A stretch of DNA of 18,811 nt from a virus. Position numbers and translations under genes: made by a program. The notes under the pieces were generated by a model. That model had not been told where the DNA came from. It saw nothing but the letters and a program-made list of their open reading frames with translations, and did not search any database. Each line of letters starts with the position of its first letter. Within the stretch, counting starts at the first letter, position 1. Shown in pieces: positions 3,669 to 18,811 of the stretch. Where the stretch lies: UHGV virus genome UHGV-0168127; one strand, given 5' to 3'.

Positions 3669-3679
3669 AGGCGATACCG

Positions 3680-5365: not shown

Positions 5366-5446
5366 CTTTCTCCTGTTCTTTGTGCTGATTGAGCATTTTG
5401 TTCATCTGACGAATGAATTCTTCGTCTGACCAGTTATCTGTAAAAC

Positions 5447-5599
5447 TCATTTCCTGCGATACCACGGAAGGTTGATAGCTGATTTCATCGCTTTATTTGC
5501 TTCAAGCCACATTTTTGAATCACCAATAAATCGGGCTATTACTGCTTTGTTCTGTGCTGCACGAAGCATCTGGTGATTGATGGCTATTTCATTGCGCAT
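5447..5599 (-). CDS. kil: Kil-like small protein (50 aa), putative host cell-division inhibitor
   Basis: Manual ORF MRNEIAINHQMLRAAQNKAVIARFIGDSKMWLEANKAMKSAINLPWYRRK; overlaps the 3' end of cIII as kil does in lambda; the IA.FIGD..M segment matches my recollection of lambda Kil (TIATFIGDEKMF). Confidence 0.45.
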   Translation of the reverse strand: MRNEIAINHQMLRAAQNKAVIARFIGDSKMWLEANKAMKSAINLPWYRRK

Positions 5600-5715
5600 A
5601 ATAAGACCTCAACTCTTTTCCATCCGTCACGTAATTTACGGGTGATTCGTTCAAGTAAAGATTCATTTAGTTGGAAGGCACCCATGCGAGCGCCTCCCGC
5701 GATTGCGTAAATCAT
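5584..5715 (-). CDS. cIII: CIII-like protein (43 aa), putative FtsH inhibitor
   Basis: Manual ORF MIYAIAGGARMGAFQLNESLLERITRKLRDGWKRVEVLLCAMK with AAGGAA RBS; ESLLERITRKLRDGWKR matches the conserved core of lambda CIII as I recall it. Confidence 0.65.
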   Translation of the reverse strand: MIYAIAGGARMGAFQLNESLLERITRKLRDGWKRVEVLLCAMK

Positions 5716-5739
5716 GGGTGGTTCCTTATGTTGGTTTTA

Positions 5740-6741
5740 TTAGTAGGTTATTTTTGTTGCGAATACTTCGCCTTTTACGATGGCTGTTATGATATTTTTA
5801 GCAACATCTTCTGATGCGCCAACCTTGATAAGGTCAGCAAGTATTTTGTTATTTACTTCTTTCCGGTGAGCTTTATCCTTTGCTCTACGCTCTTCTTCGT
5901 CCTTGATTCTTTTTTCTTCTGCTATTCTGGCTTGCTCTTTTGCTTCAGCCTCGCGCAGGATTCGTTCTGCCTCCTCCTGTGCTTTACGGCGTTCTGCTTC
6001 AATTGCCGCATGCTTTTCTCTTTCAGCTCGTTCTGCTGCCTCTTTTGCTTCGCGCTGTGCTCGTTGCTCGGCTTCAATGCGTTCACGCTCTGCACGTTCC
6101 GCTGCGGCCTTAGCTTCTGCTTCACGGCGCGCTGCGGCTTCAATCTCTGCTTTGTGCTTCGCTTCGGCATCGCGTCGGGCTTGCTCTGCCGCTTCACTCT
6201 TAATGCGCTCTTCATGCTCACGTTGAGCCTGTTCCGCCTGGCGGCGCTGCTCTTCGCGGTCACGGTCGAAATCCTTGTTCATCAGCAGAGCCATTTCGTG
6301 GTCTGCTTCGAACTTGGCCGCCAACTCCTGATCGAACTTGATGTTCATTTCCAGCGCTTCGGCGTGCAACGCGTTCATGGCTTCTTCAGCCTTAATGCGC
6401 TCCTGCTCGGCTTCCCATTCGGTGAGTGGGCGGCGGGTGGCATCACGTAGCTCGTCGCAGGCATCAACGAAACGCTTAATTTCCGCCTCAGCGGGGCGCA
6501 CAGCCTCTTTCAGGCGCTTCAGGTACTCACGCCCCGGCTTTTCGATTGCCGTCTTGCTGCGCGACACCTGCGCCGCCAGAGAGGCGACACGGTCACGGCC
6601 TTTCTTCGTTGACAGGTCCGGCACTTCGTTTACTGCCTGGCGGATTTGCTCGAGGTAAGCGTCAAGGCCGCCCGCTACGTAAAGCGCTGGCGCCTGCTCC
6701 GGCGTGATTTCGATGACAGTTAAGTCCATTACTTCGCTCAT
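5740..6741 (-). CDS. Coiled-coil protein (about 333 aa) with a long E/A/R/K-rich repetitive C-terminal half
   Basis: Track ORF 5740..6849 trimmed to the ATG at 6741 (AGGAGA RBS), because the upstream part is occupied by another small gene; low-complexity charged repeats generate the many shadow ORFs on both strands in 5866..6658. Confidence 0.55.
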   Translation of the reverse strand: MSEVMDLTVIEITPEQAPALYVAGGLDAYLEQIRQAVNEVPDLSTKKGRDRVASLAAQVSRSKTAIEKPGREYLKRLKEAVRPAEAEIKRFVDACDELRDATRRPLTEWEAEQERIKAEEAMNALHAEALEMNIKFDQELAAKFEADHEMALLMNKDFDRDREEQRRQAEQAQREHEERIKSEAAEQARRDAEAKHKAEIEAAARREAEAKAAAERAERERIEAEQRAQREAKEAAERAEREKHAAIEAERRKAQEEAERILREAEAKEQARIAEEKRIKDEEERRAKDKAHRKEVNNKILADLIKVGASEDVAKNIITAIVKGEVFATKITY

Positions 6742-6811
6742 GGTTTCTCCTGAAATTTGGATGTGCAGATCCCGCCCGCTTTTAGCCAGGCCGATCGGTT
6801 GAATAGGGGAA

Positions 6812-6952
6812 TTAGGCTGTTTTTCTATGCCACGGATAACCGATGGCAACCTTCATTTCGTCGTAGGCTGCCATCCACATGGCGCCATCACCGATAAACA
6901 GGGCAATGGCTGCTTTGCTCTGCGCGGCGCGCAGCAGGTGATGATTGATCAT
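6812..6952 (-). CDS. Kil-like paralog (46 aa)
   Basis: Manual ORF MINHHLLRAAQSKAAIALFIGDGAMWMAAYDEMKVAIGYPWHRKTA; start overlaps the upstream stop (ATGA); clearly paralogous to the ORF at 5447..5599. Confidence 0.4.
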   Translation of the reverse strand: MINHHLLRAAQSKAAIALFIGDGAMWMAAYDEMKVAIGYPWHRKTA

Positions 6953-7107
6953 ACCTTCACCTCAACCTGTTCCAGGAGGCCAGCGATATTCATCTGTTGG
7001 CGGTTCAGCGTCAGCTTGTCGCGCGGTGCCGATACCGACGTCAGCTGCCACTCGTTATCGTTGAGCTTTTTGTCGGTGTACTGCTTGCCGTTGTGGGTGA
7101 CTGTCAT
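6949..7107 (-). CDS. Hypothetical small protein (52 aa)
   Basis: Track ORF 6949..7149 trimmed to the ATG at 7107, which has an AGGTGG RBS. Confidence 0.35.
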   Translation of the reverse strand: MTVTHNGKQYTDKKLNDNEWQLTSVSAPRDKLTLNRQQMNIAGLLEQVEVKV

Positions 7108-7108
7108 C

Positions 7109-7318
7109 TCACACCACCTTGAATAAGAACCAGACCATACCGCACACAATCAGGCCCACAATGGTTATTGCGGAAGACATGCGTACATGGTCAATGGCTA
7201 GTTTTGAAATTGGCTGGCGATGTTCTTTTTTCGTCAGCGAGTTGATTGCTATGCCGAGCAGAAACGTCCCGACAAACCATAATGCGTATATCTTTAAGCC
7301 CAACTCCAAATCACTCAT
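7109..7318 (-). CDS. Small membrane protein (69 aa, two predicted transmembrane helices)
   Basis: Two hydrophobic stretches (IYALWFVGTFLLGIAI and AITIVGLIVCGMVWFLF) separated by a basic loop. Confidence 0.45.
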   Translation of the reverse strand: MSDLELGLKIYALWFVGTFLLGIAINSLTKKEHRQPISKLAIDHVRMSSAITIVGLIVCGMVWFLFKVV

Positions 7319-7453
7319 AAATCCTCTTGGCCTTATCGCGGCGAACGGAACGGTTAATACAAGACTTCAACGCATTTATTCAGTGTTTCAATGGGCGGTG
7401 GATGGCCGCCGGTTGTCATAACTAAGCCGCCTCGGTGAAGCGACTGAGGTATG

Positions 7454-7475
7454 AAAAAACCCGCCGTGGCGGGTC
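7454..7475 (-). terminator. Intrinsic terminator inside the leftward operon
   Basis: On the - strand GACCCGCC-AC-GGCGGGT hairpin directly followed by TTTTTTCAT, immediately after the stop of the 7477..7797 gene. Confidence 0.45.
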
Positions 7476-7476
7476 T

Positions 7477-7797
7477 TCAGAAATAGTCTTTATGGTCGTG
7501 CATCGCTTGCTGGAGGATCACCTTTGCATCTTCAAAGCTGGCAGATTCAAAAGCCTCTCTTATGGCCTTAGCCAGGCAAGTCGCATCGCTTTCATAGTCA
7601 TCAGCTCTGCTTTCCCAGTTTGATGCCTCTTCTTCAGCCTCATAAAGGCGATCGCCATACTCGCACTCGAGTTCCTGGCGCACTTCATCGCGAAGCTTCT
7701 CCTTGATGATTTCGGAGGCTTCTTCAATCGGCATTGTTTCCAGAATCGTCTCTGGCTGATGAGTGCCGTATTTCAGTGAGATGTCAGTAGCAAACAT
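7477..7797 (-). CDS. Hypothetical highly acidic protein (106 aa)
   Basis: Track ORF trimmed to the ATG at 7797 (GGAGGT RBS); roughly 30% Asp/Glu. Confidence 0.45.
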   Translation of the reverse strand: MFATDISLKYGTHQPETILETMPIEEASEIIKEKLRDEVRQELECEYGDRLYEAEEEASNWESRADDYESDATCLAKAIREAFESASFEDAKVILQQAMHDHKDYF

Positions 7798-7806
7798 GCA
7801 ACCTCC

Positions 7807-7835
7807 AAAAAAATTGCCCTCACACTGGAGGGCAA
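7807..7835 (-). terminator. Terminator-like hairpin plus T-run just upstream of the acidic-protein gene
   Basis: On the - strand TTGCCCTC-CAGTGT-GAGGGCAA (8-bp stem) followed by TTTTTTT. Confidence 0.35.
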
Positions 7836-7928
7836 AGAAGATTTCCAATAATCAGAACAAGTCGGCTCCTGTTTAGTTACGAGCGACATTGCTCCGTGTA
7901 TTCACTCGTTGGAATGAATACACAGTGC

Positions 7929-8141
7929 TTATTCGCGAGCTTTGAGCATGGCATCAGCAATAAAGTAGGCATCATCTGCTAATTCTTTGTACTGTGGTGA
8001 ATTCTGTCCACCACCAAAGGAATGTCCGTCCCATCTGCGCACTATTGCTGCCATAGCCTTAGCAGCGAAGTAATCACGTAATGTCGCATCACTTGCCATT
8101 TCTGGGCGTTTGATATCTTCTTCATAAAACTCGCACATCAT
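7929..8141 (-). CDS. Hypothetical protein (70 aa)
   Basis: Track ORF; its start overlaps the stop of the upstream gene. Confidence 0.4.
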   Translation of the reverse strand: MMCEFYEEDIKRPEMASDATLRDYFAAKAMAAIVRRWDGHSFGGGQNSPQYKELADDAYFIADAMLKARE

Positions 8142-8422
8142 TCACCTCCCAGAGCCTTGCTGATTGCTGCCTTGGCTCGTTTGTATTCGGTTAACTCTCT
8201 GCACCCTTCGTCATGCTCGTAAAGGAAGACAAGCTCTTGCAGTGCTTCAAGCAAATCAGGAGCTGCTGCTATCAGTAGCGCATCCTCCCTTTCATTTCTT
8301 GTTGCTGCTTCAATGTATGTGTCACCAATCGTCACACCATGGAACGTAGTCATCATCTCGTTGACGTTTCTAACCGTGTACTTCCATTTACCAGGCGTAC
8401 CCTTAAACTCTTTCATATCCAC
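8138..8422 (-). CDS. Hypothetical protein (94 aa)
   Basis: Track ORF; overlaps the downstream gene start by 4 nt. Confidence 0.4.
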   Translation of the reverse strand: MDMKEFKGTPGKWKYTVRNVNEMMTTFHGVTIGDTYIEAATRNEREDALLIAAAPDLLEALQELVFLYEHDEGCRELTEYKRAKAAISKALGGE

Positions 8423-8463
8423 CTCTGTTGTTTATGCCAAAAATAAAGGCCGACTATTCGGCC

Positions 8464-8631
8464 TTAAAATCCTGAATATTCGCGAAGAGATTCGATAATT
8501 TCCTCGCAGTCGATAAGTAGTTCGTCAGGTTCATCTTCTCGATTTTTAAGTGCCTCAATGTTCCCAGCTAACTGGCGAAGCATCATTGCTTGCCATTCAG
8601 GGTCGAAGCTGTCTGGTATTTCAATTTCCAT
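8464..8631 (-). CDS. Hypothetical acidic small protein (55 aa)
   Basis: Manual ORF MEIEIPDSFDPEWQAMMLRQLAGNIEALKNREDEPDELLIDCEEIIESLREYSGF with GAGGTG RBS; missed by the track (below 60 aa). Confidence 0.35.
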   Translation of the reverse strand: MEIEIPDSFDPEWQAMMLRQLAGNIEALKNREDEPDELLIDCEEIIESLREYSGF

Positions 8632-8693
8632 ATTTCACCTCAAATAAGTGGTTTGCTGCCAAAACAATGAACCATCAGGAAATTCCAGATAGT

Positions 8694-8918
8694 TCATAAT
8701 TCACTCTTCAATACTTCCAACTTACTAATCGCCGATAGATATCCGCGCTGATAGGGCATCATCATTCCTTCGAGCTTGCCACTTCTTAACTCCTCCCTGA
8801 GCAATTGTATTGCTTGATCAATAACCTCTGCCTTAGCGTCCTTTATGGCTTGCTTGCGGGGCTTTGCTTTCTGCTTTGGCAGATTTCTCAAGCATGATGG
8901 AATGTATGTCTGAGTCAT
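8694..8918 (-). CDS. First gene of the leftward operon: small basic protein (74 aa), candidate N-analogous antiterminator, function unproven
   Basis: AAGAGGA RBS upstream of the ATG at 8918; K/R-rich N-terminal stretch (LRNLPKQKAKPRKQAIKDAK); first ORF downstream of the OL region. No similarity to lambda or P22 N that I can recognise. Confidence 0.35.
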   Translation of the reverse strand: MTQTYIPSCLRNLPKQKAKPRKQAIKDAKAEVIDQAIQLLREELRSGKLEGMMMPYQRGYLSAISKLEVLKSEL

Positions 8919-9240
8919 AAAAAATCCTCTTGTGATTCAGCCCAGCCCACTCAACTTCGAATGGACTGGAATAAATCTGTTTGCGCTTCGCACCTCTCAT
9001 CCCGCCAGTGTTGCCCGTTCCCACGCCTTTATCGCTCTCGCGAGGGGGTAGCCTCACACCGACCGGATCGCGCCCGGTGCTGCGCCGAATTTGTACGTTG
9101 GGGTCTAAACAGGATTACTGAGTGCTGTTCCGACTTTGCATGTTGTTAAAAAGCAGGCGACTTGCTGTCCGCCGCTGGCTAACTTCGCTCAGCTGTCGAT
9201 GTTTCGTTTCGATGGATTGATAATAGCGATGAGTATTGTT

Positions 9241-9282
9241 TATAGCAATACGTATTGATATTAAATAATAGCAATTGCTATT
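9241..9282. promoter_or_regulatory. OL-like operator cluster (pL region)
   Basis: Perfect palindromes CAATACGTATTG (9246..9257) and AATAGCAATTGCTATT (9267..9282), built from the same half-sites as the operators between cI and cro. Confidence 0.5.
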
Positions 9283-9393
9283 AATGCGTTGATAGCTAAA
9301 GGAATTTATTTGGATATTTTTTCGCGGGATTGAGATTCAGATCGTTTTTTTACTGCGGCGGGTATTGCTGTGACGAATGGGCTGGCTGCGGGC

Positions 9394-9420
9394 AATAAAA
9401 AACCCAGCACTATGGCTGGG
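9394..9420 (-). terminator. Intrinsic terminator downstream of cI
   Basis: On the - strand CCCAGC-CATAGT-GCTGGG perfect hairpin followed by TTTTTTATT, about 22 nt after the cI stop. Confidence 0.55.
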
Positions 9421-9441
9421 CTTGATTCATAGCTGGGTTTG

Positions 9442-10146
9442 TTAACCGTGTTTTCTGTATGTCTGAGGCATGCTACCAATCACCTTGCCGAATATGAGTA
9501 TCCTGTTCATTTCTTCTTTTTCGATTGGCTCCCACGGGCGATAAGTCTGATTGTCGGAGATGACCAACAGCTTATCTTTCATCTTCTGGAGGCGTTTAAC
9601 GTGGGAAGTATCGTCGTAGATAAAGGCGTAGATCCCGTCACCATCAAAATGTTGGACGCTGATGTCGACGAACAATAAGTCGCCTGGTTCAATGGTCCCG
9701 GACATGCTGTCTCCGCGAACATTAATGATTCTGATCTGCTCAGCCTTCCTGCCATTAAACATCCGACGAGCATCTTCCACTGAGTATTCCACGGATCTAA
9801 GCACCTCTACAAATTCGCTGTTGATGGCTCCTGGCCCGGCGCTTACGTAAAAGTCTAGCGCCTCAATGCGGAATGTGTCAGTAGGGGCCAGCTCTGTTTT
9901 CGGCTGCGAAATTGCGGGCATTTGACCATCTTCACGCATTGGGCCAACTCCGGTTGAAAGCCACTCAGTGCGAACGCCAAGCGCATTGGCGATCTCAACG
10001 ATTTTAGTTGAGCCTCGGGCATTGCCACTGGTCAGCCTCCAGATGGTGGGTTGAGCAACGCCAGACGCCTTAGCTAAAGCGCCCTGAGACATGCCAGATA
10101 GTTCCATCGCCTGATTCAGGCGTTCTGCAAGAGTTTCTTTTTTCAT
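9442..10146 (-). CDS. cI: CI-type repressor: N-terminal HTH plus C-terminal S24 (LexA-like) autopeptidase domain
   Basis: Track ORF trimmed to the ATG at 10146 (MKKETLAERL...); HTH segment MSQGALAKASGVAQPTIWRL; GDSM and KRL motifs consistent with a Ser/Lys catalytic dyad; divergent from the cro-like gene across an operator region. Confidence 0.85.
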   Translation of the reverse strand: MKKETLAERLNQAMELSGMSQGALAKASGVAQPTIWRLTSGNARGSTKIVEIANALGVRTEWLSTGVGPMREDGQMPAISQPKTELAPTDTFRIEALDFYVSAGPGAINSEFVEVLRSVEYSVEDARRMFNGRKAEQIRIINVRGDSMSGTIEPGDLLFVDISVQHFDGDGIYAFIYDDTSHVKRLQKMKDKLLVISDNQTYRPWEPIEKEEMNRILIFGKVIGSMPQTYRKHG

Positions 10147-10154
10147 GAGTTTTA

Positions 10155-10226
10155 ATTTATACGCTTGCGTATTGATGGTCAAAACACGTTTAGCTATTGC
10201 CTAAATCAATACGCATTGCTATTATC
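10155..10226. promoter_or_regulatory. OR-like operator and divergent promoter region (candidate pRM leftward and pR rightward)
   Basis: Palindrome ATACGCTTGCGTAT (10159..10172) and a related site near 10207..10226. Rightward promoter candidate: -35 TTGCCT (10197..10202), 17-nt spacer, -10 TATTAT (10220..10225). Leftward candidate: -35 TTGACC (complement of 10177..10182), -10 ATAAAT (complement of 10155..10160), placing the start at or near the cI ATG (leaderless, as for lambda pRM). Confidence 0.5.
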
Positions 10227-10257
10227 AATTCACACCAATACTCATAGGAATTGGAAG

Positions 10258-10485
10258 ATGACGAACAAAACAATCCAGCGCGCCATTGATATCGCTGGTA
10301 GCCAGAAGAAATTAGCCGACCTTTGCGGCGTTGCTCAGCCGACGGTATGGCGCTGGTTGCACGGCGGCGGCATTGATGCCCGCTACGTAATGAAGATTGT
10401 CACTGCAACAAACGGCAAGCTAAAACCAGCAGATATCCGTCCAGACCTCGCCCAGCTGCTTGAGGCGAATAACACAGCCGCTTAA
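10258..10485 (+). CDS. cro: Cro-like HTH regulator (75 aa)
   Basis: Track ORF 10165..10485 trimmed to the ATG at 10258; HTH segment SQKKLADLCGVAQPTVWRWLHG; divergent from cI. Confidence 0.6.
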   Translation: MTNKTIQRAIDIAGSQKKLADLCGVAQPTVWRWLHGGGIDARYVMKIVTATNGKLKPADIRPDLAQLLEANNTAA

Positions 10486-10514
10486 TTGCGGCCCTAACCA
10501 CGAAAGGGAAAGCA

Positions 10515-11081
10515 ATGCATTCACTTGCGTATCAACAGAGTACCGGACTTGAACAACGTCCGTTGATTTCGATTTATCAAAGTGTTCCGCGTAATAACCG
10601 TAAGCTAATTCGAATACGGGATGCAGTTAAGGCCTGGCAAAAAGCTACGCCGGGCCAGTCTCAGGTTCACATTTCTCAGCTGGTTGCGAAAGAGTGGCTG
10701 GCGCGCGGCGGGAAGGGGTTGTTACTGGCAGGTTCTGAACACAACACGAAGCAGAACTTCTTCCGGATGATTAACGATCCGGGCCCGAAGAACGACAAGG
10801 GGTTGATGCTACTGATCCCCGTCATTATCGACGTGATGGCGCGGGATAACGAGAAAGTGGCGAGAGAGTTCGGTCTGGTCGCAAAGACTGAGGCCGAACT
10901 GATAGCCGAGGCCATGAAAGAGTGCACTGAAGCGCATCAGGCGAAGTTACTTGGTCAGCCGATACAACGCCTTGAGAAAGAGGTGAGAGAAGCTGCTGAA
11001 GCACTTCTGCGCTTTCTGCCCACTGAATCAATCGCCGCGGTGGTGACAAGTCTGGCCGCTATGGCGCCGGGAGTTATGTGA
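10515..11081 (+). CDS. Early regulator at the cII position (188 aa), possibly YdaT/CII-like; function unassigned
   Basis: Immediately follows cro in the rightward operon; far larger than lambda CII; no motif I can assign with confidence. Confidence 0.4.
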   Translation: MHSLAYQQSTGLEQRPLISIYQSVPRNNRKLIRIRDAVKAWQKATPGQSQVHISQLVAKEWLARGGKGLLLAGSEHNTKQNFFRMINDPGPKNDKGLMLLIPVIIDVMARDNEKVAREFGLVAKTEAELIAEAMKECTEAHQAKLLGQPIQRLEKEVREAAEALLRFLPTESIAAVVTSLAAMAPGVM

Positions 11082-11317
11082 TGGGAAGTATCAAAAATGG
11101 CGAAAGCCAGTCTGCGTCAACAGAACTGGCCTTCAGATGCAAATCGTGTGCACTCATTGCAGGAGGAATAATGGCAAAAAATCCACGCTATTACCATACC
11201 GCTGTACATAAAAACATAACCCGCGACCGCTTCATCCGCTCGGTTAATCCGATTGTGGCAGAGAAGATGCGCGCCATCCTGGAAGAACTGAAACGTAAGG
11301 AGAGTGGCCGTGGGTAA
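11078..11317 (+). CDS. Hypothetical small protein (79 aa, or 48 aa from the internal ATG at 11171)
   Basis: Track ORF; strong AGGAGG RBS precedes the internal ATG at 11171, so the shorter form may be the real product. Confidence 0.3.
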   Translation: MMGSIKNGESQSASTELAFRCKSCALIAGGIMAKNPRYYHTAVHKNITRDRFIRSVNPIVAEKMRAILEELKRKESGRG

Positions 11318-12209
11318 CGTATCCAATTTAGCCGAAGCCAGAGAGGCCAGAAGGCTCCAGAAACCGCGCACGAATGACGGTAAGGGGTTTGCCTTGCTGC
11401 ACCGTAAAATTATGGATGTGCCGTTCTACAAGGACGCTGAGGCGGCTCATTTATGGGTTCACTTGCTCCTGCGCGCTAATCACGAACAGACACTGGTATC
11501 TACTGATGTTGGCGATGTGATCTGCGAGCGCGGAGAGTTCATCACCGGGCGAAACACACTGGCAATGGAAACGGGTTTGACCGCTGATCGCGTTAAATCC
11601 CTTCTCCGTAAATTCCAGAATCTGGGCATGATCACCACCAAATCGAACAACCGTTTTACTGTTCTAAAAGTGGTCAAATATGACGAATATCAGTCAAATT
11701 TTTGTCCAGCAGATGTCCAGCCAGCGTCCAGCCCAAACATAGTCGTACCAATGCCTGCGGAGGTGGAGTGTCCAGCCGATGTCCAGCCAGTGTCCACAGA
11801 TAACAATATATTAAATAACTTACTACCTAACGGTAGTAAGTATGTCGCAAATGACCAGAAACCCGCTGAAGAGAAAAAGTCTCGTTTGTCATGCGATGAA
11901 GTATGGCAATGCCTGAAAGACGAACTGCCTGAAGCACGGGGATGGAGATGCCTCACTGATGAGCGACGCAATCTGATCCGCACATTCTGGGGTAAGGCTA
12001 ATAAGATTGCCCGCAACCTGGACGGCAAGCCGATGGATATGGACGGTTTCAGAAGCTATCTGCGTTACATCGCTCAGAACTGCCGCTGGATGCTTGAAGA
12101 CCGACCAGACCAGAAGTCTGGGAAGACCTGGCGCCGCATGAAATTCGATAAGTTCCTGACCGAAAAGCTCTACATCGAAGTGCGCGAGGGGGATCGTGAT
12201 GACCGCTGA
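11304..12209 (+). CDS. Replication initiator (lambda O-like in position; winged-helix N-terminal domain)
   Basis: Precedes and overlaps the DnaB-like helicase gene; contains iteron-like repeats internally, as lambda O contains ori. GTG start at 11304 or 11310. Confidence 0.6.
   Translation: MAVGNVSNLAEAREARRLQKPRTNDGKGFALLHRKIMDVPFYKDAEAAHLWVHLLLRANHEQTLVSTDVGDVICERGEFITGRNTLAMETGLTADRVKSLLRKFQNLGMITTKSNNRFTVLKVVKYDEYQSNFCPADVQPASSPNIVVPMPAEVECPADVQPVSTDNNILNNLLPNGSKYVANDQKPAEEKKSRLSCDEVWQCLKDELPEARGWRCLTDERRNLIRTFWGKANKIARNLDGKPMDMDGFRSYLRYIAQNCRWMLEDRPDQKSGKTWRRMKFDKFLTEKLYIEVREGDRDDR
11702..11799. repeat. Iteron cluster (putative origin of replication) inside the initiator gene
   Basis: Six copies of (A/G)TGTCCAGCC-like units in two groups of three with about 11-bp spacing (11704..11733 and 11768..11798), followed by an AT-rich stretch at 11800..11832. 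Confidence 0.55.
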
Positions 12210-13632
12210 TTTCATGGCTGTACCACAAAACCTCGAAGCAGAGCAGAGCGTTATCGGTGGCCTGCTGCTGGATGATGACAACAGCGAGCGAGTCCAGAAG
12301 GTTCTGGCGATGCTCAAGCCTGAATCGTTCTACAGCCGACCTCACCAGCTGATCTTTGCCGAGATGCGCCAGATGTTCCGCGACAACAAGCCAGTCGATG
12401 GTCTGACATTGTTCGACGCGCTCGAAAGCAAAGGGCTCGCGGAGCAGGTAGGTGGCTTTGCTTACCTGGCGGAGATCGCCAAGAACACTCCCAGCGCTGC
12501 AAACATCGTGGCATACGCTGCGTCAGTCCGGGAAGCCGCAATGGAGCGCTACGGTATCAGCCGCCTGACCGAAGCTACTGAGCTGCTGTATTCCCGCAAT
12601 GGCATGAGCGCCACGCAGAAGTACGAGGCCATTCAGGGTATTTTCACCCAGCTCGCAGACCATTCAAAAACCGGTAGTCGCCGTGGGTTGCGGTCGTTCG
12701 GCGAGGTTATGGATGACTGGGTAGCAGATCTGGAGAAACGCTTTGACCCTTCAGGCGAACAGCGCGGCATGAGCACCGGCATCCCGTCACTCGACCGGCT
12801 GCTGGCGCCGAAAGGTCTGGTTAAAGGCTCTCTGTTCGTGATTGGCGCAAGGCCAAAGATGGGCAAGACAACCCTGTACGGTCAGATGGCGATCAACTGC
12901 GCGGTTCGTGAGAAAAAGCCAGCGCTGATGTTCAGCCTCGAAATGCCGGGCGACCAGATCCTCGAAAAACTGGTTGGTCAGAAGTCTGGAGTTAACCCGA
13001 GCATTTTTTACATGCCAGCCACGGATGACGCCGATGACCAGTACCAGGGCGATTACGACGGCGACTTTAAGAAGGCGATCGCCACCGCCGGGCGATTGAG
13101 TGAAATCGACATGCTGTACATCGACGATACTCCTGGCCTGTCACTGGCGCACATCGTTAGCGAAAGCCGCCGAATCAAGCGCGAGAAGGGCTGCGTAGGA
13201 ATGATTTTGGTTGACTACCTGACTCTGATGACCGCCGAAAAAGCCGACCGTAATGACCTTGCCTACGGGATGATCACCAAAGGGTTGAAGAACCTCGCTA
13301 AAGAGCTTGGCTGCGTCGTCGTGCTGCTGACCCAGCTCAACCGCGAACTGGAGAAGCGAGTGAATAAACGCCCGTTACCGAGCGATTCCCGCGACACAGG
13401 ACAGATTGAGCAGGACTGCGACTACTGGGTTGGTATCCACCGGGAAGGTGCTTTCGATGACAGCGTGCCGCCGGGAGAAACCGAGTTAATCCTGCGACTC
13501 AATCGCCACGGCAGTACCGGAACGGTTTATTGCAATCAGATCAACGGGGCAATTTACGACACAGACCAGCAGGCCGCCGCCGCAGAACGACGCGGGCGTG
13601 AGCAGCAGCCGAAAAAGAAAGGGGGATTCTGA
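12199..13632 (+). CDS. DnaB-family replicative helicase
   Basis: N-terminal EAEQSVIGGLLLD motif and Walker A GARPKMGKT typical of DnaB; start overlaps the initiator stop. Confidence 0.9.
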   Translation: MTADFMAVPQNLEAEQSVIGGLLLDDDNSERVQKVLAMLKPESFYSRPHQLIFAEMRQMFRDNKPVDGLTLFDALESKGLAEQVGGFAYLAEIAKNTPSAANIVAYAASVREAAMERYGISRLTEATELLYSRNGMSATQKYEAIQGIFTQLADHSKTGSRRGLRSFGEVMDDWVADLEKRFDPSGEQRGMSTGIPSLDRLLAPKGLVKGSLFVIGARPKMGKTTLYGQMAINCAVREKKPALMFSLEMPGDQILEKLVGQKSGVNPSIFYMPATDDADDQYQGDYDGDFKKAIATAGRLSEIDMLYIDDTPGLSLAHIVSESRRIKREKGCVGMILVDYLTLMTAEKADRNDLAYGMITKGLKNLAKELGCVVVLLTQLNRELEKRVNKRPLPSDSRDTGQIEQDCDYWVGIHREGAFDDSVPPGETELILRLNRHGSTGTVYCNQINGAIYDTDQQAAAAERRGREQQPKKKGGF

Positions 13633-13973
13633 TGACCATAACAATCCGCGGGCAGATTCTTGCAGCCCTGCGTAACAACCAGGGCCTGAACAGTGCTCGT
13701 ATTGCCAGCATGATCGGCATGACCACCAAAAAGATTTCCGGCCCGTTAAGTACGTTGTTTGCAGATGGCCTGATCGAGTTCGAAGGCAAGCACGGACAGC
13801 GGCTTTATCGGCTGACCGATTACGGCATGAAATACGCACCAGAAACAATCCCGGCTATGCCGAAGGGAAATTCGAAGCTGGTGCAGCGTACAGAGGCAAA
13901 CGTGATCTGCCAGGAGTGCCGCAACAGCGCGGCGATGAGAAGAATTTTAAGCGTATACGGGGTGAGAGCATGA
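13632..13973 (+). CDS. Winged-helix (MarR-like) putative DNA-binding protein (113 aa)
   Basis: Start overlaps the helicase stop (TGATG); HTH-like segment LNSARIASMIGMTTKKISGPLSTL. Confidence 0.4.
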   Translation: MTITIRGQILAALRNNQGLNSARIASMIGMTTKKISGPLSTLFADGLIEFEGKHGQRLYRLTDYGMKYAPETIPAMPKGNSKLVQRTEANVICQECRNSAAMRRILSVYGVRA

Positions 13974-14584
13974 AAAATAATACACAGCCAGCACTGAAAG
14001 AACGAATCGAAAAGGCACTTGAAGACTTCACCAAAGGCCGCGCCAGCATGCATGTTCCTCCGCTTGATACCGATGTTGATGTGGTGCTGGCGGAATGCAG
14101 TGACCGATTATCAGAGCTTAAAGCCAGATGCGCGGCGCTGGCTGCGGAGAATGCGATGTTGAAGCAACGGACACAGCAACTTATCGACATCATTAGCAAT
14201 ACTGACAATGACTACTGCATGTGTGGTTCTGCTATGAAAGACCACGTGCACAGCGGATGTGGTTATCCTACTGGCATGTTCGATTATTACTACAACCAGT
14301 GGCTGGAGTCAGATAACAAAACCCCAGCCACCGATGCTTTCCTGGCTGAAGTGAAGACTGAAGCACGCAAGGAGGGAGCTTACTTTGTGGCGAACAGAAT
14401 GCTGGCTGCCTGGGAAGCTGGTTTTATTGATGATACTGCGAAGAACGCCGCGGATATTGCCAGGATGATTATTACCTCTACTGAGTTTATGGCTAATGCG
14501 CCGGAAGGCGATTTTGACCGCTCATTCTCTGATGGCGTTCTCGAAGATATCGCCGCCCAGCTTCGCAAAGGAGTGCAGTCATGA
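13970..14584 (+). CDS. Ea22-like protein (204 aa), paralog of 2490..3176
   Basis: Track ORF 13916..14584 trimmed to the ATG at 13970 (ATGA overlap with upstream stop); shares ARCAALAAENAMLKQ and [12 protein letters not shown] motifs with the left-arm copy. Confidence 0.55.
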   Translation: MKNNTQPALKERIEKALEDFTKGRASMHVPPLDTDVDVVLAECSDRLSELKARCAALAAENAMLKQRTQQLIDIISNTDNDYCMCGSAMKDHVHSGCGYPTGMFDYYYNQWLESDNKTPATDAFLAEVKTEARKEGAYFVANRMLAAWEAGFIDDTAKNAADIARMIITSTEFMANAPEGDFDRSFSDGVLEDIAAQLRKGVQS

Positions 14585-15180
14585 GCAACAACATTCAAGT
14601 GCTGAAAGCTTATTACGTGCAGGGTGATGAGTACGGGATTATCCGTTTCGCTACAAGTAACGTCGTGGCTCGCCGTGAGGGTGCGAACGAACTGGAAGAG
14701 GAATTCAACTGCGTATCATGCAAGCGCTTTCATGGTGCTGATAAATATGCAGAACTTGGTCGCGTTCCTTCTCGCGTTCTGGTTGAAGAGTTTGGCTTTT
14801 GGCAAGAGTGCACCTATTGCAGATGTCACGTTGATGAAGAAACAGAAGGGCGCGTGTGGGTTGGCGATTCTGTTTATTGCGATATGGAGTGCGAGGCGCG
14901 CTGGATTAATCATCGCCTTGATTGCGAAGCGGAACGCAAGCGTACTCATGAGGCAGAGCAGGCAGCAATTGCGGAAGCGGAAGCAAAGTTCCCTGGAATT
15001 ACAGACGTCACGGCCTACATCGGCCACAAGAAAGACATCACGGTTTATTTTAGATTCCCTGGTGGATTAGAAAAGGCATCATGGACTGTTGGCGAGAATC
15101 ATGCGGGTACTAGTCACGATGATGGAGAGGCGTTCAAATCGTACATCAACTCAATTCGTCAAGTGGAGGCAGCCCAATGA
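14581..15180 (+). CDS. Cysteine-rich hypothetical protein (199 aa), possible zinc-binding
   Basis: CxxC...CTYCRCH...CDMEC cysteine clusters; translationally coupled to both neighbours. Confidence 0.45.
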   Translation: MSNNIQVLKAYYVQGDEYGIIRFATSNVVARREGANELEEEFNCVSCKRFHGADKYAELGRVPSRVLVEEFGFWQECTYCRCHVDEETEGRVWVGDSVYCDMECEARWINHRLDCEAERKRTHEAEQAAIAEAEAKFPGITDVTAYIGHKKDITVYFRFPGGLEKASWTVGENHAGTSHDDGEAFKSYINSIRQVEAAQ

Positions 15181-15545
15181 GCAACATCGACAAACAGGCG
15201 CTGCGTGAAATCGCAGCGGCAGCAGTTGGCGCACATGAGCGCCTTAGTGTTATGCCGCCTGATGACATTTTCGATATCTCACTGGCAGAAGGAACTCAGC
15301 TTGATGCAGATATCACTGCCTTGAACGCGCTGAACTCCGCAGCAAACCCCACTACCGTGCTGGCGCTGCTGGATGAGCTGGAATCCAAAGACAGGCGCAA
15401 CGCTGAGCTGGAGGCGAAACTCCAAGCCACTGACAAATTGCATGATAGCGCGTTCCGTCATGGTCTCCAGCATGGTTTTAGTTACGGTCAGACAGATGAT
15501 CAAGCAGGATTTGAGAAAGCCATCCAAGCGTATGGGCAGCAGTGA
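15177..15545 (+). CDS. Ead/Ea22-like N-terminal-domain protein (122 aa), paralog of 1777..2493
   Basis: MSNIDKQALREIAAAA and ANPTTVLALLDELE motifs. Confidence 0.5.
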   Translation: MSNIDKQALREIAAAAVGAHERLSVMPPDDIFDISLAEGTQLDADITALNALNSAANPTTVLALLDELESKDRRNAELEAKLQATDKLHDSAFRHGLQHGFSYGQTDDQAGFEKAIQAYGQQ

Positions 15546-15559
15546 AAAGGAGAGTGAGT

Positions 15560-15736
15560 ATGAAATACGAAATCCCGGAATCAGAAGATATTGAATGGCA
15601 GCAGGCTATGCTCCGTGAAATAGACAGCGCCCTTGACGTCTTGCGTGATGAGCATGAGCACGCAGTGGTGGTAGAAGAAATCATCAATGATATCACCGCG
15701 AGAATAGCATCACTCCGCGCGTACTCTGGATACTGA
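15560..15736 (+). CDS. Hypothetical small acidic protein (58 aa)
   Basis: Track ORF 15542..15736 trimmed to the ATG at 15560 preceded by AAGGAG. Confidence 0.35.
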   Translation: MKYEIPESEDIEWQQAMLREIDSALDVLRDEHEHAVVVEEIINDITARIASLRAYSGY

Positions 15737-15746
15737 GGACTAACCC

Positions 15747-16454
15747 ATGAGCACCTTCACCAAAGAGCAGTTAATCGAAAAGCTTCAGCACAGAATTTCT
15801 GTCGCATCAAGATTTCCGGAGTCAGAAAAAACGCAAATGGATCTTGAACTGGCGCGTATCGCGCTGGCATCACTCGAAGCGGAGCCCTACGGATATGTCC
15901 ATAAAGCAGCTTATGAGCAAGCAGGAAGTTGTGGATTATCGGGCGACCATGAAGCCTATCGAGATAGCTCAACTCACATCGCCGTTTACACCGCCACGCC
16001 AGCGCCGGTATCTGTGCCCGCTGCGATGGAAATTGATGATGACTTTGACAGCGCGTTTGAACACGGAAAAGCTGTCGGCTGGAACGCCTATCGCGCCGCC
16101 ATGCTTCAGGCCGAACCTGTAAGTAATAGTGATGAGTTACCGCTGGACTATCTGCAAGGACACAAAGACGGCCTGGAGTGGGCTGCACAATTGGCAGAAG
16201 CCAATCATCCGCAAACAGGTGACTGGTTGTACGACGACCAAATCGATCTTGCCAGGGCGATTCGCAAAGGTCCGGATATGCCTACTGTTCAGGCTGGCAA
16301 CTCTCCGGTAACTCCGGATGGTTCAGCTAACATATTGCGGCGCTGGTTAGCATTTGGTCGCGCAATGCAAAGTTCTGGCAGTCAGTTACCTCGCCACCTG
16401 ATTGCAGAAACCGAGTCCATGCTCGCAGCAGCACCGCAGCAGGAGGTGAAGTGA
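15747..16454 (+). CDS. Protein with DUF551-associated N-terminal domain (235 aa), paralog of the N-terminus of 1024..1581
   Basis: ELARIALASLE and GNSPVTPDG motifs shared with the left-arm DUF551-like protein; C-terminus differs. Confidence 0.45.
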   Translation: MSTFTKEQLIEKLQHRISVASRFPESEKTQMDLELARIALASLEAEPYGYVHKAAYEQAGSCGLSGDHEAYRDSSTHIAVYTATPAPVSVPAAMEIDDDFDSAFEHGKAVGWNAYRAAMLQAEPVSNSDELPLDYLQGHKDGLEWAAQLAEANHPQTGDWLYDDQIDLARAIRKGPDMPTVQAGNSPVTPDGSANILRRWLAFGRAMQSSGSQLPRHLIAETESMLAAAPQQEVK

Positions 16455-16642
16455 GTATGAGTGCATCACTTATAACCGCCTTCAATCAAAGTGCAAATCC
16501 AAGCAATGAGCAGGTTGTTGTGTTCGGCTGGATTGCTGAGTATTTCGAAAGCATTTTCGACGATGAATCCGCTAGGTATTGCAGGAATATTTCTGAATCA
16601 CTCAAAAATCAGGTTTCTGCTCAACAGGAGGTGAAGTCGTGA
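16451..16642 (+). CDS. Hypothetical small protein (63 aa)
   Basis: Start embedded in the conserved junction CAGGAGGTGAAGTGA; may begin at the ATG at 16457 instead. Confidence 0.35.
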   Translation: MSMSASLITAFNQSANPSNEQVVVFGWIAEYFESIFDDESARYCRNISESLKNQVSAQQEVKS

Positions 16643-16851
16643 GCAAGCACATCATCAAATATGACTATCGAGAGGGAGTTAAACTCCCTAAGCACGAGAT
16701 TGAGACATGGTGCGGTCATCGGCCAGGGTCATTCGAATGGCTTTTTCAGGATGCTCAGCATGCGCTATTGAGCATTGAGCAGGGAACGCTGCTTGTTCCT
16801 TGCAAGAATTGTCTGGCAGCAATCATCAAAACGGCGCAGGTGGTGAAGTGA
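16639..16851 (+). CDS. Hypothetical small protein (70 aa) with CxxC and CxxC-like cysteines
   Basis: GTG start overlapping the upstream stop in the second copy of the junction motif. Confidence 0.35.
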   Translation: MSKHIIKYDYREGVKLPKHEIETWCGHRPGSFEWLFQDAQHALLSIEQGTLLVPCKNCLAAIIKTAQVVK

Positions 16852-17129
16852 TGGACTCCTTCGCGAAATATACGATCATTGACTGGATAGCATTCCTTCA
16901 GGTTTTGCTCATCTGGTTTTATATGGCTTACAGGAGTGGGCAGTGGATTGTCAGTGTAGCCTGTAGCAGGGGATGGCGTTGGTGGAACCGAAAGAATAAA
17001 AAAGCACTGGCATTGGATTCGTTTTACGAAGCATTCAATCTTAACAGCCTTCAGCCTGGTTCTGTCATTGTAGTCACCACTCAAAGCGGCATGACCATTC
17101 AGATTCATAAACCAAAAGAGGAAAAATGA
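16851..17129 (+). CDS. Small membrane protein (92 aa, one predicted transmembrane helix)
   Basis: Track ORF 16800..17129 trimmed to the ATG at 16851 (ATGA coupling in the third junction copy); hydrophobic segment IIDWIAFLQVLLIWFYMAY. Confidence 0.4.
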   Translation: MDSFAKYTIIDWIAFLQVLLIWFYMAYRSGQWIVSVACSRGWRWWNRKNKKALALDSFYEAFNLNSLQPGSVIVVTTQSGMTIQIHKPKEEK

Positions 17130-17215
17130 TGTGGCCTATATGTGTTAATTGCGGACGGATGTGCCTATCTGGATGGTGCCGAAAGTGCGACAAATGCACG
17201 AAGCAAAGACAATAA
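17126..17215 (+). CDS. Cysteine-rich 29-aa peptide (zinc-ribbon-like)
   Basis: Manual ORF MMWPICVNCGRMCLSGWCRKCDKCTKQRQ with six cysteines in CxxC-like spacing; ATGA overlap with the upstream stop. Confidence 0.3.
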   Translation: MMWPICVNCGRMCLSGWCRKCDKCTKQRQ

Positions 17216-17287
17216 CAATCCTCGCACTCGCGGGGATTTCTTTTATCTGAACTCGCTACGGCGGGTTTTGTTTTATGGAGATGATAA

Positions 17288-17455
17288 ATGCACTTTCGAG
17301 TCACAGGTGAATGGAATGGAGAACCATTCAACAGGGTTATCGAAGCAGAGGACTTCAACGACTGCTATGACCACTGGATGATATGGGCGCAGATAGCACA
17401 TGCAGACGTAACCAATATTCGAATTGAAGAACTGAAAGAACACAAAACCGCCTGA
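17288..17455 (+). CDS. Small conserved 55-aa lambdoid protein (right copy), function unknown
   Basis: Manual ORF MHFRVTGEWNGEPFNRVIEAEDFNDCYDHWMIWAQIAHADVTNIRIEELKEHKTA; GGAG RBS; lies inside the 255-bp inverted repeat. Confidence 0.6.
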   Translation: MHFRVTGEWNGEPFNRVIEAEDFNDCYDHWMIWAQIAHADVTNIRIEELKEHKTA

Positions 17456-17468
17456 TGGCGGTTTTTTC
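17444..17468 (+). terminator. Rho-independent terminator between the 55-aa gene and xis
   Basis: AAAACCGCC-TGAT-GGCGGTTTT perfect 9-bp stem followed by TTTTTTC. Confidence 0.6.
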
Positions 17469-17494
17469 TTGCGTGTAATTGCGGAGACTTTGCG

Positions 17495-17713
17495 ATGTAC
17501 TTAACACTTCAGGAGTGGAACGCACGCCAGCGGCGCCCAAGAAGCCTTGAAACAGTTCGTCGATGGGTACGCGAGTGCAGGATATTCCCTCCTCCGGTTA
17601 AGGATGGAAGAGAGTATCTGTTCCACGAATCAGCGGTAAAGGTTGACTTAAATCGACCAGTAACAGGTAGCCTTTTGAAGAGGATCAGAAATGGGAAGAA
17701 GGCGAAGTCATGA
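17495..17713 (+). CDS. xis: Lambda-type excisionase Xis (72 aa)
   Basis: Translation MYLTLQEWNARQRRPRSLETVRRWVRECRIFPPPVKDG... matches phage lambda Xis as I recall it; overlaps the int start as in lambda. Confidence 0.9.
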   Translation: MYLTLQEWNARQRRPRSLETVRRWVRECRIFPPPVKDGREYLFHESAVKVDLNRPVTGSLLKRIRNGKKAKS

Positions 17714-18761
17714 GCGCCGGGATTTACCCCCTAACCTTTATATAAGAAACAATGGATATTACTGCTACAGGGACCCAAGGACGGGTAAAGAGTTCGGATT
17801 AGGCAGAGACAGGAGGATAGCAATTACTGAAGCAATACAGGCAAACATTGAGTTATTTTCAGGACACAAACACAAGCCTCTGACAGCAAGAATCAACAGT
17901 GATAATTCTGTTACGTTACATTCATGGCTTGATCGCTACGAAAAAATCCTGGCCAGCAGAGGAATCAAGCAGAAGACACTCATAAATTACATGAGCAAAA
18001 TTAAAGCAATAAGGAGGGGTCTGCCTGATGCTCCACTTGAAGACATCACCACAAAAGAAATTGCGGCAATGCTCAATGGATACATAGACGAGGGCAAGGC
18101 GGCGTCAGCCAAGTTAATCAGATCAACACTGAGCGATGCATTCCGAGAGGCAATAGCTGAAGGCCATATAACAACAAACCCGGTCGCTGCCACTCGCGCA
18201 GCAAAATCAGAGGTAAGGAGATCAAGACTTACAGCTGACGAATACCTGAAAATTTATCAAGCAGCAGAATCATCACCATGTTGGCTCAGACTTGCAATGG
18301 AACTGGCTGTTGTTACCGGGCAACGAGTCGGTGATTTATGCGAAATGAAGTGGTCTGATATCGTAGATGGATATCTTTATGTCGAGCAAAGCAAAACAGG
18401 CGTAAAAATTGCCATCCCAACAGCATTGCATGTTGATGCTCTCGGGATATCAATGAAGGAAACACTTGATAAATGCAAAGAGATTCTTGGTGGAGAAACC
18501 ATAATTGCATCTACTCGTCGTGAACCGCTTTCATCCGGCACAGTATCAAGGTATTTTATGCGCGCACGAAAAGCATCAGGTCTTTCCTTCGAAGGGGATC
18601 CGCCTACCTTTCACGAGTTGCGCAGTTTGTCTGCAAGACTCTATGAGAAGCAGATAAGCGATAAGTTTGCTCAACATCTTCTCGGGCATAAGTCGGACAC
18701 CATGGCATCACAGTATCGTGATGACAGAGGCAGGGAGTGGGACAAAATTGAAATCAAATAA
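17691..18761 (+). CDS. int: Lambda-type tyrosine integrase Int (356 aa)
   Basis: Translation MGRRRSHERRDLPPNLYIRNNGYYCYRDPRTGKEFGLGRDRRIAITEAIQ... essentially matches lambda Int from memory, including the C-terminal catalytic region (HELRSLSARLY...LLGHKSDTMASQY). Confidence 0.95.
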   Translation: MGRRRSHERRDLPPNLYIRNNGYYCYRDPRTGKEFGLGRDRRIAITEAIQANIELFSGHKHKPLTARINSDNSVTLHSWLDRYEKILASRGIKQKTLINYMSKIKAIRRGLPDAPLEDITTKEIAAMLNGYIDEGKAASAKLIRSTLSDAFREAIAEGHITTNPVAATRAAKSEVRRSRLTADEYLKIYQAAESSPCWLRLAMELAVVTGQRVGDLCEMKWSDIVDGYLYVEQSKTGVKIAIPTALHVDALGISMKETLDKCKEILGGETIIASTRREPLSSGTVSRYFMRARKASGLSFEGDPPTFHELRSLSARLYEKQISDKFAQHLLGHKSDTMASQYRDDRGREWDKIEIK

Positions 18762-18811
18762 TGATTTTATTTTGACTGATAGTGACCTGTTCGTTGCAAC
18801 AAATTGATAAG
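18762..18811. other. attP P' arm with arm-type Int-binding sites; the core lies just beyond the window end
   Basis: TGATTTTATTTTGACTGATAGTGACCTGTTCGTTGCAACAAATTGATAAG matches the lambda attP P' arm; complement strand carries tandem arm-type sites CAGTCAAAAT (18769..18778) and AGGTCACTAT (18779..18788). Confidence 0.75.

Follow-up and report, generated by a model that had tools for sequence, protein, structure and literature searches.

The stretch of DNA analysed here (the window; 18,811 nucleotides, UHGV virus genome UHGV-0168127) makes up the phage-derived part (bases about 2507-21317) of the ENA metagenome contig ERZ843187 NODE_279_length_46930, a contig with a SPAdes-style name from a short-read metagenome assembly with a coverage of about 15x. 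It carries the following features:

1-49: start of the torI-dsdC spacer (KplE1/CPS-53-type attR region), near-identical to the K-12 spacer
50-250, minus strand: torI, KplE1-type excisionase (recombination directionality factor, RDF) of 66 aa, identical to E. coli K-12 TorI at 66/66 residues
288-3337, minus strand: left (argW-prophage) ea arm of seven genes
308-475, minus strand: orf55 of the left ea arm
564-845, minus strand: ea8.5-like gene of the left ea arm
1024-1581, minus strand: 185-aa dATP/dGTP-pyrophosphohydrolase+DUF551 protein of the left ea arm
Listed between the 185-aa and Ead_Ea22 genes, minus strand: 63-aa protein of the left ea arm
1777-2493, minus strand: 238-aa Ead_Ea22 protein of the left ea arm
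2490-3176, minus strand: 228-aa protein of the left ea arm
3173-3337, minus strand: DUF2737 protein of the left ea arm
3354-8918, minus strand: pL-type early-left operon (Pfam families) with a 104-aa protein, Gp157 (3680-4162), RecT (4146-5057), Kil, cIII, a 333-aa protein (5740-6741) and small ORFs
9442-10146, minus strand: cI-type repressor (HTH and Peptidase_S24 by Pfam)
10258-13632, plus strand: rightward early operon (Pfam, phrog_345)
10258-10485, plus strand: YdaS/Cro-like gene
10515-11081, plus strand: YdaT
Listed between YdaT and the O-like initiator, plus strand: 78-aa protein of the rightward operon
11310-12209, plus strand: O-like initiator with iterons (phrog_345, replication initiation O-like; repeats D2 at 11703-11796)
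12199-13632, plus strand: DnaB-type helicase (Pfam DnaB/DnaB_C)
13632-13973, plus strand: winged-helix or Ren-like gene of 113 aa (PHROG 142 "Ren-like exclusion protein", 5.7e-28; weak wHTH Pfam matches)
13970-17455, plus strand: ea-type genes downstream of the winged-helix gene
13970-14584, plus strand: 204-aa ea-type gene in which the changeover falls (aligned relatives have alternative C-termini)
14198-14573: crossover interval of 376 nt without differences between the two parental types (comparison of L013 and L007)
14581-16454, plus strand: ea cassette of four genes
14581-15180, plus strand: 199-aa protein of the ea cassette
15177-15545, plus strand: 122-aa Ead_Ea22 protein (PF13935, 3.7e-20)
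15560-15736, plus strand: 58-aa protein of the ea cassette
15747-16454, plus strand: 235-aa DUF551-like protein of the ea cassette
15991-16293: second possible switch segment, with at most one difference among nin-type (L013, L016) and pL-type relatives
16457-17455, plus strand: int-proximal small genes (61-aa protein, 70-aa protein, DUF4752 at 16851-17129, orf55 at 17288-17455)
17495-17713, plus strand: lambda-type xis of 72 aa (PF07825 (Exc), 3.9e-41)
17691-18761, plus strand: lambda-type int of 356 aa (PF09003 Arm-DNA-bind_1, PF02899 Phage_int_SAM_1, PF00589 Phage_integrase)
18762-18811: P' arm of lambda attL (comparison with lambda)

At the left end, the preliminary description had correctly placed a TorI-type excisionase. 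The argW-derived 16-nt core CTGCAGGGGACACCA lies just outside the window within the torI-dsdC spacer, which in NODE_279 is nearly identical to that of K-12 including the core, and the TorI-family RDF thus stands at an attR beside the duplicated argW core and dsdC as in KplE1/HK620-type modules. In many E. coli torI adjoins dsdC (or csc), and a 385-aa integrase is found at the other prophage end. The lack of an integrase next to torI, which had been taken as an oddity, is real but not anomalous, because the integrase of KplE1/HK620/Sf6-type modules sits at the opposite prophage end beside argW (Panis et al. 2010, PMC2951348). This IntS-bearing end near argW is not on NODE_279 and is present in relatives such as L026. 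Compared to the KplE1 (CPS-53)/HK620/Sf6-type IntS-TorI module at argW, the window shares an identical TorI, the torI-dsdC spacer and the 16-nt core, but K-12 KplE1 is a 10-kb remnant without repressor, whereas the TorI end of the window is joined to a full pL-cI-pR early region. The pL-type operon of this region shows 97-99% DNA identity to pL regions of many E. coli prophages, and operator-like inverted repeats (I6; 9213-9250 and 10195-10232) flank the cI-type gene. The left and right arms of the window share mirror-image inverted repeats (I1-I5 and I7; e.g., 288-550 versus 17213-17475 with 94% identity).

The right end is of lambda type: a tyrosine-family integrase with an N-terminal arm-binding domain, matching lambda Int in its domains, and an Exc-family Xis are encoded by genes overlapping at 17691-17713, and window positions 17212-18811 (orf55, xis, int and P' arm) share 97.8% DNA identity with the int-xis module of phage lambda at the E. 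coli gal-bio site (J02459 27762-29361). The P' arm beside int, previously interpreted as part of an attP, is indeed present and leads to the lambda core TTAGTATAAAAAAGC 24 nt past the window end, with its 15-bp core GCTTTTTTATACTAA. However, an attP (P-O-P') would continue into the phage P arm beyond the core. At this junction the core (at position 14255 of L002) is followed by the reverse complement of the K-12 attB left flank and then by ybhC, so that the right end reads lambda P'-core-B with a B arm identical to K-12 attB. Unlike the attP of lambda, the site is therefore an attL (B-O-P') and a host-prophage junction.

No late genes were found just outside the window, where host DNA and two unrelated att sites lie instead. 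Both window ends are true host-prophage junctions that belong to different recombination systems, with dsdC-dsdX (KplE1/CPS-53 attR at argW) flanking the window to the left in NODE_279 and ybhC-ybhJ-ybhI-ybhH (lambda attL) to the right. The corresponding K-12 loci run ybhH+ ybhI+ ybhJ+ ybhC- at 0.80-0.807 Mb and torI+ dsdC- dsdX+ at 2.476 Mb, and the reverse of NODE_279 reads ybhH..ybhC-window-dsdC-dsdX with both flanks oriented as in K-12, where they are 1.67 Mb apart (0.807 versus 2.476 Mb). Since the flanks are co-oriented, the contig at face value needs a deletion and not an inversion; taken literally, it would be a co-linear deletion-type join losing 1.67 Mb including the terminus, which would be lethal. 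As would be expected of an assembly chimera, the contig brings together flanks that are not adjacent in real genomes and implies a genome that is implausible. Among the explanations offered by the preliminary description, a fusion or inversion between two inverted prophages holds insofar as ends of two different prophages are combined, but its inversion geometry is contradicted by the deletion-type order from 0.807 to 2.476 Mb; an assembly artefact gains support from the two unrelated att sites with host DNA on both sides.

These ends also weigh against a true mobile element, defective or satellite-like, that would combine immunity, replication and two recombination modules and would have lost, or never had, late genes. 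The cI, O, DnaB, xis and int ORFs do look intact and structural genes are absent, but an attR of the IntS/TorI system and an attL of lambda Int are unable to recombine together, IntS is absent, and the flanks lie as far apart as noted above. P4-like or PICI-like satellites have a cognate att pair with their own integrase and hijacking or capsid-redirection genes, whereas no satellite hallmark genes were seen here: all genes match ordinary lambdoid early genes, and for every segment there are ordinary full-size lambdoid prophages with late genes that match it at 97-100% identity. With its non-cognate ends and lack of hallmark genes, the satellite-like reading finds no support and seems extremely improbable.

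The unusual layout itself, with replication genes leading into lambda xis-int, is really present in the window sequence. Downstream of the helicase, the same strand carries the winged-helix gene, ea-type genes, lambda xis-int and the P' arm just as had been described, and the reported absence of late, lysis or structural genes holds for the window and for contig NODE_279. Whereas the int-xis module of lambda closes the pL operon, that of the window follows a replication operon and nin-type genes on the same strand. The canonical lambdoid order, in which nin, Q, lysis and structural genes come after the replication genes, is not found here but is present in a 100%-identical relative, the JGI contig L013. 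Enterobacter phage CobraSix, the prophages of E. coli TC24 and NCTC9040, and L013 share with the window the order of helicase, Ren-like wHTH, 204-aa-type gene and Ead_Ea22/DUF551 at 95-100% DNA identity, but there the next genes are NinB/NinE/NinG, RusA, Q, lysis and terminase, while the window continues into xis-int. In these relatives the winged-helix gene directly follows the helicase (at 100% identity in L013, and in the same synteny in CobraSix, TC24 and NCTC9040), and the 5' part of the next gene shares this arrangement in each case. The junction that the preliminary description had suspected within 13632-13973 is thus not there, and the changeover lies in 14198-14573 instead; the winged-helix gene is the first nin-region gene of the replication-side phage and not a junction.

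Ea-type genes after the helicase had likewise been counted as a departure from canonical order; they are present, but such genes are common right after the helicase/P gene in normal lambdoid prophages and phages. This could suggest that the passage from replication operon through ea genes to xis-int is the ordinary architecture of some lambdoid lineage with nothing joined. Yet what comes after the cassette in every such normal case is Nin genes, Q, lysis or terminase and never xis-int, no phage record covering the join was found, and none of 5426 complete E. coli genomes contains positions 13500-15300 contiguously or reaches at least 80% window coverage. We consider an ordinary architecture hardly credible.

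What connects both halves is the ea cassette (204/236-aa gene, Ead_Ea22, 58-aa gene, DUF551-like gene and others), which is promiscuous and occurs either after replication genes or at the int-proximal end of pL with 98-100% DNA identity. Exact copies of the 58-aa, 122-aa and 61-aa proteins are found in both contexts, after replication genes (L036, L041, L042, L063-L065, L067-L070, L051, L054 and L060) and beside xis/int (L034-L040, L062 and L052-L059). The segment encoding the 122-aa, 58-aa and DUF551-like proteins (about 15165-16323) shows 98-99.8% DNA identity when copies from the two contexts are compared, and up to 6 copies of the cassette occur per genome. The 204-aa gene combines a nin-type 5' part with 441 nt at its 3' end that are common to the 236/265-aa gene of lambda-site pL arms, and its last three codons are of the lambda-site type.

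Direct comparison with the two parental types delimits the switch. L013 is 100% identical to the window over 11742-14573 and beyond this point follows the normal phage order with NinE, NinG, Q, lysis and terminase genes. On the other side L007, a lambda-site prophage arm ending in int-ybhC, is identical to the window over 14198-18811 and differs left of 14198 only at positions 14143 and 14197; an E. coli isolate locus (L005) is also 100% identical to the window from 16092 onward. Each side thus matches a different natural sequence, and the switch falls inside a shared repeat with an overlap of 376 nt. Chimeric contigs are known to arise in short-read metagenome assembly at intragenomic or inter-strain repeats, and the window likewise switches perfectly between two natural sequences inside an identical repeat with non-adjacent flanks. 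In contrast to a typical chimeric contig, part of its path is backed by a second assembler: the MEGAHIT contig L014 (ERZ27274209 k141_35115) extends without a break from the O gene across 14198-14573 as far as 16234 with a single difference at 16093. The adjacency of the 204-aa and 199-aa genes is probably real DNA in the sample of L014, since two parental forms of similar depth would be expected to interrupt a k=141 graph within the 376-nt repeat. A mis-join is still to be suspected, but this continuity places it to the right of 15991. L014 ends at 16234, exactly 141 nt after its difference at 16093, a spacing that suggests a branch in the assembly graph along this path, and MEGAHIT contigs identical or near-identical to the window break at 3528, 11724 and 16234, indicating by these breaks at neighbouring repeat edges that several related sequences were in the sample.

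In E. coli O157 and other bacteria, recombination between prophages is known to rearrange chromosomes. If two ea cassettes, one in the nin region of an argW prophage and the other in the pL arm of a lambda-site prophage, had really undergone homologous recombination inside a cell, perhaps with the aid of RecT/Gp157, a hybrid devoid of late genes would be left between KplE1 attR and lambda attL. The 100% identity of both sides to natural sequences and the 376-nt identical overlap would also be the signature of a very recent crossover, L014 reproduces the adjacency of the 204-aa and 199-aa genes, and three Logan contigs encode a near-identical 204-aa protein (P0011) that likewise ends in "KGVQS", which hints at the same adjacency elsewhere. 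However, the repeats are in direct orientation on a K-12-like chromosome, giving the 1.67-Mb deletion over the terminus and many essential genes, and a viable version would need a prior asymmetric inversion plus a second inversion. In addition, L014 stops before any continuity to xis-int, and the structure is absent from the isolates and complete genomes searched. The exact junction-spanning 204-aa protein occurs in only 2 contigs among 153 billion gene positions, the contig of the window and one MEGAHIT contig, neither of them an isolate, and the bridging DNA pattern has no match in IMG/VR, JGI metagenomes or GTDB genomes. We thus regard recombination in a cell as unlikely, and slightly more doubtful still that a gut E. 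coli truly carries the 18.8-kb hybrid through a RecT/RecA-mediated crossover in a pre-rearranged chromosome with a viable terminus-spanning inversion.

It seems likely, with a probability of roughly three in four, that the window does not represent a new type of element but ends of two ordinary E. coli prophages combined into an assembler chimera, which may begin only after an ordinary nin-region cassette. Its first part would come from a lambdoid prophage inserted at argW beside dsdC, whose TorI/attR end with a KplE1/HK620-type module would supply the pL operon, the cI immunity region, the YdaS/YdaT-O-DnaB operon and the first nin-region genes. The second part would be the attL-int-xis-ea end of a lambda-site prophage beside ybhC, and the promiscuous ea cassette carried by both would link the two. 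Judged from contigs, the join most likely arose during assembly rather than in a cell, through a mis-join inside the ea-cassette repeat. Candidate sites are the identical stretch at 14198-14573 and, further right, the region around 15991-16293; in the latter case, the genes for the 204-aa, 199-aa, 122-aa and 58-aa proteins would be the argW prophage's own nin-region cassette.

Ea/Ead_Ea22/DUF551 cassettes, being 98-100% identical in both positions, are predictable mis-join points in short-read metagenome contigs, and "proviruses" cut from chimeric contigs may resemble novel satellite-like elements. Asking whether both host flanks are neighbours in a reference genome would quickly expose such chimeras. 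If the hybrid did exist in a cell, the ea cassette would be a portable homology patch through which two prophages reshape the chromosome, and recombination between them would create a trapped double-ended remnant together with a megabase rearrangement. Left with an attR of KplE1 and an attL of lambda, which are non-cognate, the two prophages would then be locked in by each other.

The window is best read as an assembly chimera in which two ordinary prophage ends were joined through a promiscuous cassette of ea-type genes (probability roughly three in four), and the architecture noted in the preliminary description is then probably not a real feature. All genes of that description were recovered, and the window holds no late genes and, by tRNA scan, no tRNA genes:

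50-250, minus strand: torI-like excisionase gene (xis)
288-3337, minus strand: left ea arm
3354-8918, minus strand: pL-type operon with Gp157, RecT, Kil, cIII, and a 333-aa protein
9442-10146, minus strand: cI-type repressor
up to 13632 (end of the helicase gene), plus strand: YdaS/Cro-like, YdaT, O-like initiator with iterons, DnaB helicase
13632-13973, plus strand: winged-helix/Ren-like gene
13970-17455, plus strand: ea-type genes
17495-17713, plus strand: lambda xis (PF07825, 3.9e-41)
17691-18761, plus strand: lambda int
last 50 nt of the window, 3' of int: P' arm

The left and right ea arms are mirror images of each other, with inverted repeats I1-I5 and I7 in co-linear inverted order (the longest 263 nt, 94%). 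A 38-nt inverted repeat (82%) on both sides of cI (9213-9250 and 10195-10232) resembles a pair of related OL and OR operators, and 28-nt iteron-like direct repeats within the O-like initiator gene (93% identical; 11703-11730 and 11769-11796) are probably the phage origin. Two of the related contigs discussed below, L014 (11724) and L013 (11742), both end within approximately 40 nt of these repeats. No N-type antiterminator gene was recognized in 8919-9441, between cI and the first called pL gene, where relatives such as L010 and L003 carry an N_peptide gene at the corresponding position; the ORF at 8833-9057 (minus strand) has no PHROG match. The 333-aa ORF (5740-6741, minus strand) has a high G+C content of about 57% and an internal direct repeat spaced 105 nt (5910-6051), matches phrog_1376 (function unknown), and is probably the gene named "cell envelope biogenesis protein TolA" by RefSeq in matching E. 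coli prophages.

Exact protein matches locate the window at roughly bases 2507-21317 of NODE_279_length_46930_cov_15.1, a short-read metagenome contig (ENA ERZ843187) that continues into dsdC and a cut dsdX on the left and into ybhC, ybhJ, ybhI, and ybhH on the right. The 66-aa product of 50-250 is 100% identical to TorI of E. coli K-12, and the torI-dsdC spacer matches K-12 and contains the argW-derived core CTGCAGGGGACACCA. Many E. coli carry an identical TorI beside dsdC or csc genes, and in these a 385-aa integrase occupies the other prophage end by yfdC/argW. The left end without an integrase, pointed out in the preliminary description, is thus normal for the KplE1/HK620/Sf6-type TorI-integrase module (PMC2951348), whose integrase lies at the opposite prophage end. 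The right-end site had been called attP and is instead attL, given that the lambda core TTAGTATAAAAAAGC, 24 nt past the window, leads into the K-12 attB left arm (as its reverse complement), beyond which lies ybhC. These ends speak strongly against a satellite-like element, which we consider very improbable, as they are non-cognate half-sites belonging to two separate recombination systems; in addition, IntS is missing and all segments match full-size lambdoid prophages. The lambda xis ORF (17495-17713) is intact yet absent from the stored gene calls of NODE_279, L006, and L007, while it is called in L003-L005.

At 0.807 Mb beside att-lambda, the K-12 order is ybhH+ ybhI+ ybhJ+ ybhC-, and at 2.476 Mb it is torI+ dsdC- dsdX+. 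Read in reverse, NODE_279 runs ybhH..ybhC-int...torI-dsdC-dsdX, with each flank oriented as in K-12; the two cassette copies are therefore direct repeats. This co-orientation contradicts the suggested inversion between two inverted prophages. The contig corresponds instead to a deletion product lacking 1.67 Mb including the terminus, a chromosome that is not viable. Real recombination in a cell is accordingly unlikely, since the resulting deletion would be lethal in any strain that did not already carry an unusual inversion. Models in which one pL arm inverts against the other, or in which the inversion stays inside a single prophage, also fail to give TorI-dsdC on one arm and int-ybhC on the other. 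Had a circular phage genome entered a second prophage via the cassette by Campbell-type insertion, torI would be followed by attP-intS and not by dsdC, and this model too was rejected.

Winged-helix and ea-like genes between the helicase and Nin/Q/lysis genes are the ordinary arrangement in prophages of E. coli NCTC9040 and TC24 and likewise in Enterobacter phage CobraSix. The same holds for L013, a JGI contig of a normal phage, where the cassette is followed by NinE, NinG, Q, lysis, and terminase genes. Exact copies of the 58-, 122-, and 61-aa right-arm proteins occur both in nin or post-replication positions (L036, L041, L042, L063-L065, L067-L070, L051, L054, L060) and in int-proximal pL arms at several att sites (L034-L040, L052-L059, L062), and the segment encoding the 122-aa, 58-aa, and DUF551-like proteins shares 98-99.8% DNA identity between the two settings. 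The one unusual trait of the window is that its ea genes run on into xis-int. The exact pair of 122-aa Ead_Ea22 and 58-aa proteins was also seen in another prophage type (YfdP, DUF2303, PyocinActivator; L061 and L066, 10001-10560) near the dinF-lexA-dgkA-plsB locus, and the cassette was found across at least 4 integration sites.

Across 11742-14573, L013 agrees with the window at 100% identity, and the divergence begins 11 nt short of the stop codon of the 204-aa gene (13970-14584). L007, an arm of a prophage at the lambda site with the gene order 236-199-122-58-235-61-70-92-55-int-ybhC (product lengths in aa), matches 14133-18811 except at two positions, 14143 and 14197. The changeover between these parental types therefore falls within 14198-14573, 376 nt identical in both and located in the 3' part of the 204-aa gene. 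The junction had been thought likely to lie at 13632-13973, a stretch that adjoins the helicase without a break in L013 (100%), CobraSix, TC24, and NCTC9040 and that lies well to the left of the observed interval. A second shared stretch at 15991-16293 is identical or differs at no more than one position between nin-type (L013, L016) and pL-type sequences.

Within the whole collection, just two contigs encode the 204-aa protein that spans the junction: NODE_279 and L014, a 4.5-kb MEGAHIT contig (ERZ27274209 k141_35115). L014 equals window 11726-16234 except for T instead of G at 16093 and crosses 14198-14573 unbroken, which argues that the adjacency of the 204- and 199-aa genes is real DNA in its sample, with no second repeat copy at comparable depth. 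The contig stops one k-mer length, exactly 141 nt, past the difference at 16093. This stop marks a branch and shows that another sequence converges at 16094; contig ends do not assign the continuations to either prophage. Breaks at 3528 and 11724 occur in other MEGAHIT contigs that match the window exactly or almost exactly, and every assembly breaks in dsdX; together, these breaks indicate that several related prophages or strains were present. Two assemblies have dsdX truncated to 395 aa by the contig end (L027, 12869-14056; L030, 4816-6003), and in other strains csc sucrose genes replace dsdC-dsdX beside torI (L023, L025, L052, L056), suggesting a multi-strain branch point. A 204-aa Logan protein (P0011; 3 contigs, the longest 10.2 kb) differs by one residue from the hybrid protein of the window, shares its nin-type N-terminus and "KGVQS" end, and may, judged by sequence, be an independent case of the same adjacency.

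No contiguous match to the whole window or to 13500-15300 was found among 5426 complete E. coli genomes and 50,697 phage records, and a bridging DNA pattern gave 0 matches in IMG/VR, JGI metagenomes, and GTDB genomes; single anchors of the join matched 4 and 1 IMG/VR contigs, none of them bridging. That replication genes leading through ea genes into xis-int are an ordinary architecture is thus most improbable, being shown by none of the phage records or genomes searched. With host flanks at 0.807 versus 2.476 Mb and the join on two contigs only, the assembly artefact, one of the options raised initially, is favored. On a coherent reading of such a chimera, the nin region of the argW prophage (KplE1/HK620-type) would itself start with the winged-helix gene followed by the 204-, 199-, 122-, 58-aa, and DUF551-like genes, the last three of which are common in nin regions. 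The SPAdes contig would then have moved onto the arm of the lambda-site prophage, either within the DUF551-like segment common to both or to the right of it, or possibly within 14198-14573. Ea cassettes are predictable mis-join points in assemblies, and testing whether the two host flanks of a provirus are neighbors exposes chimeras of this sort.
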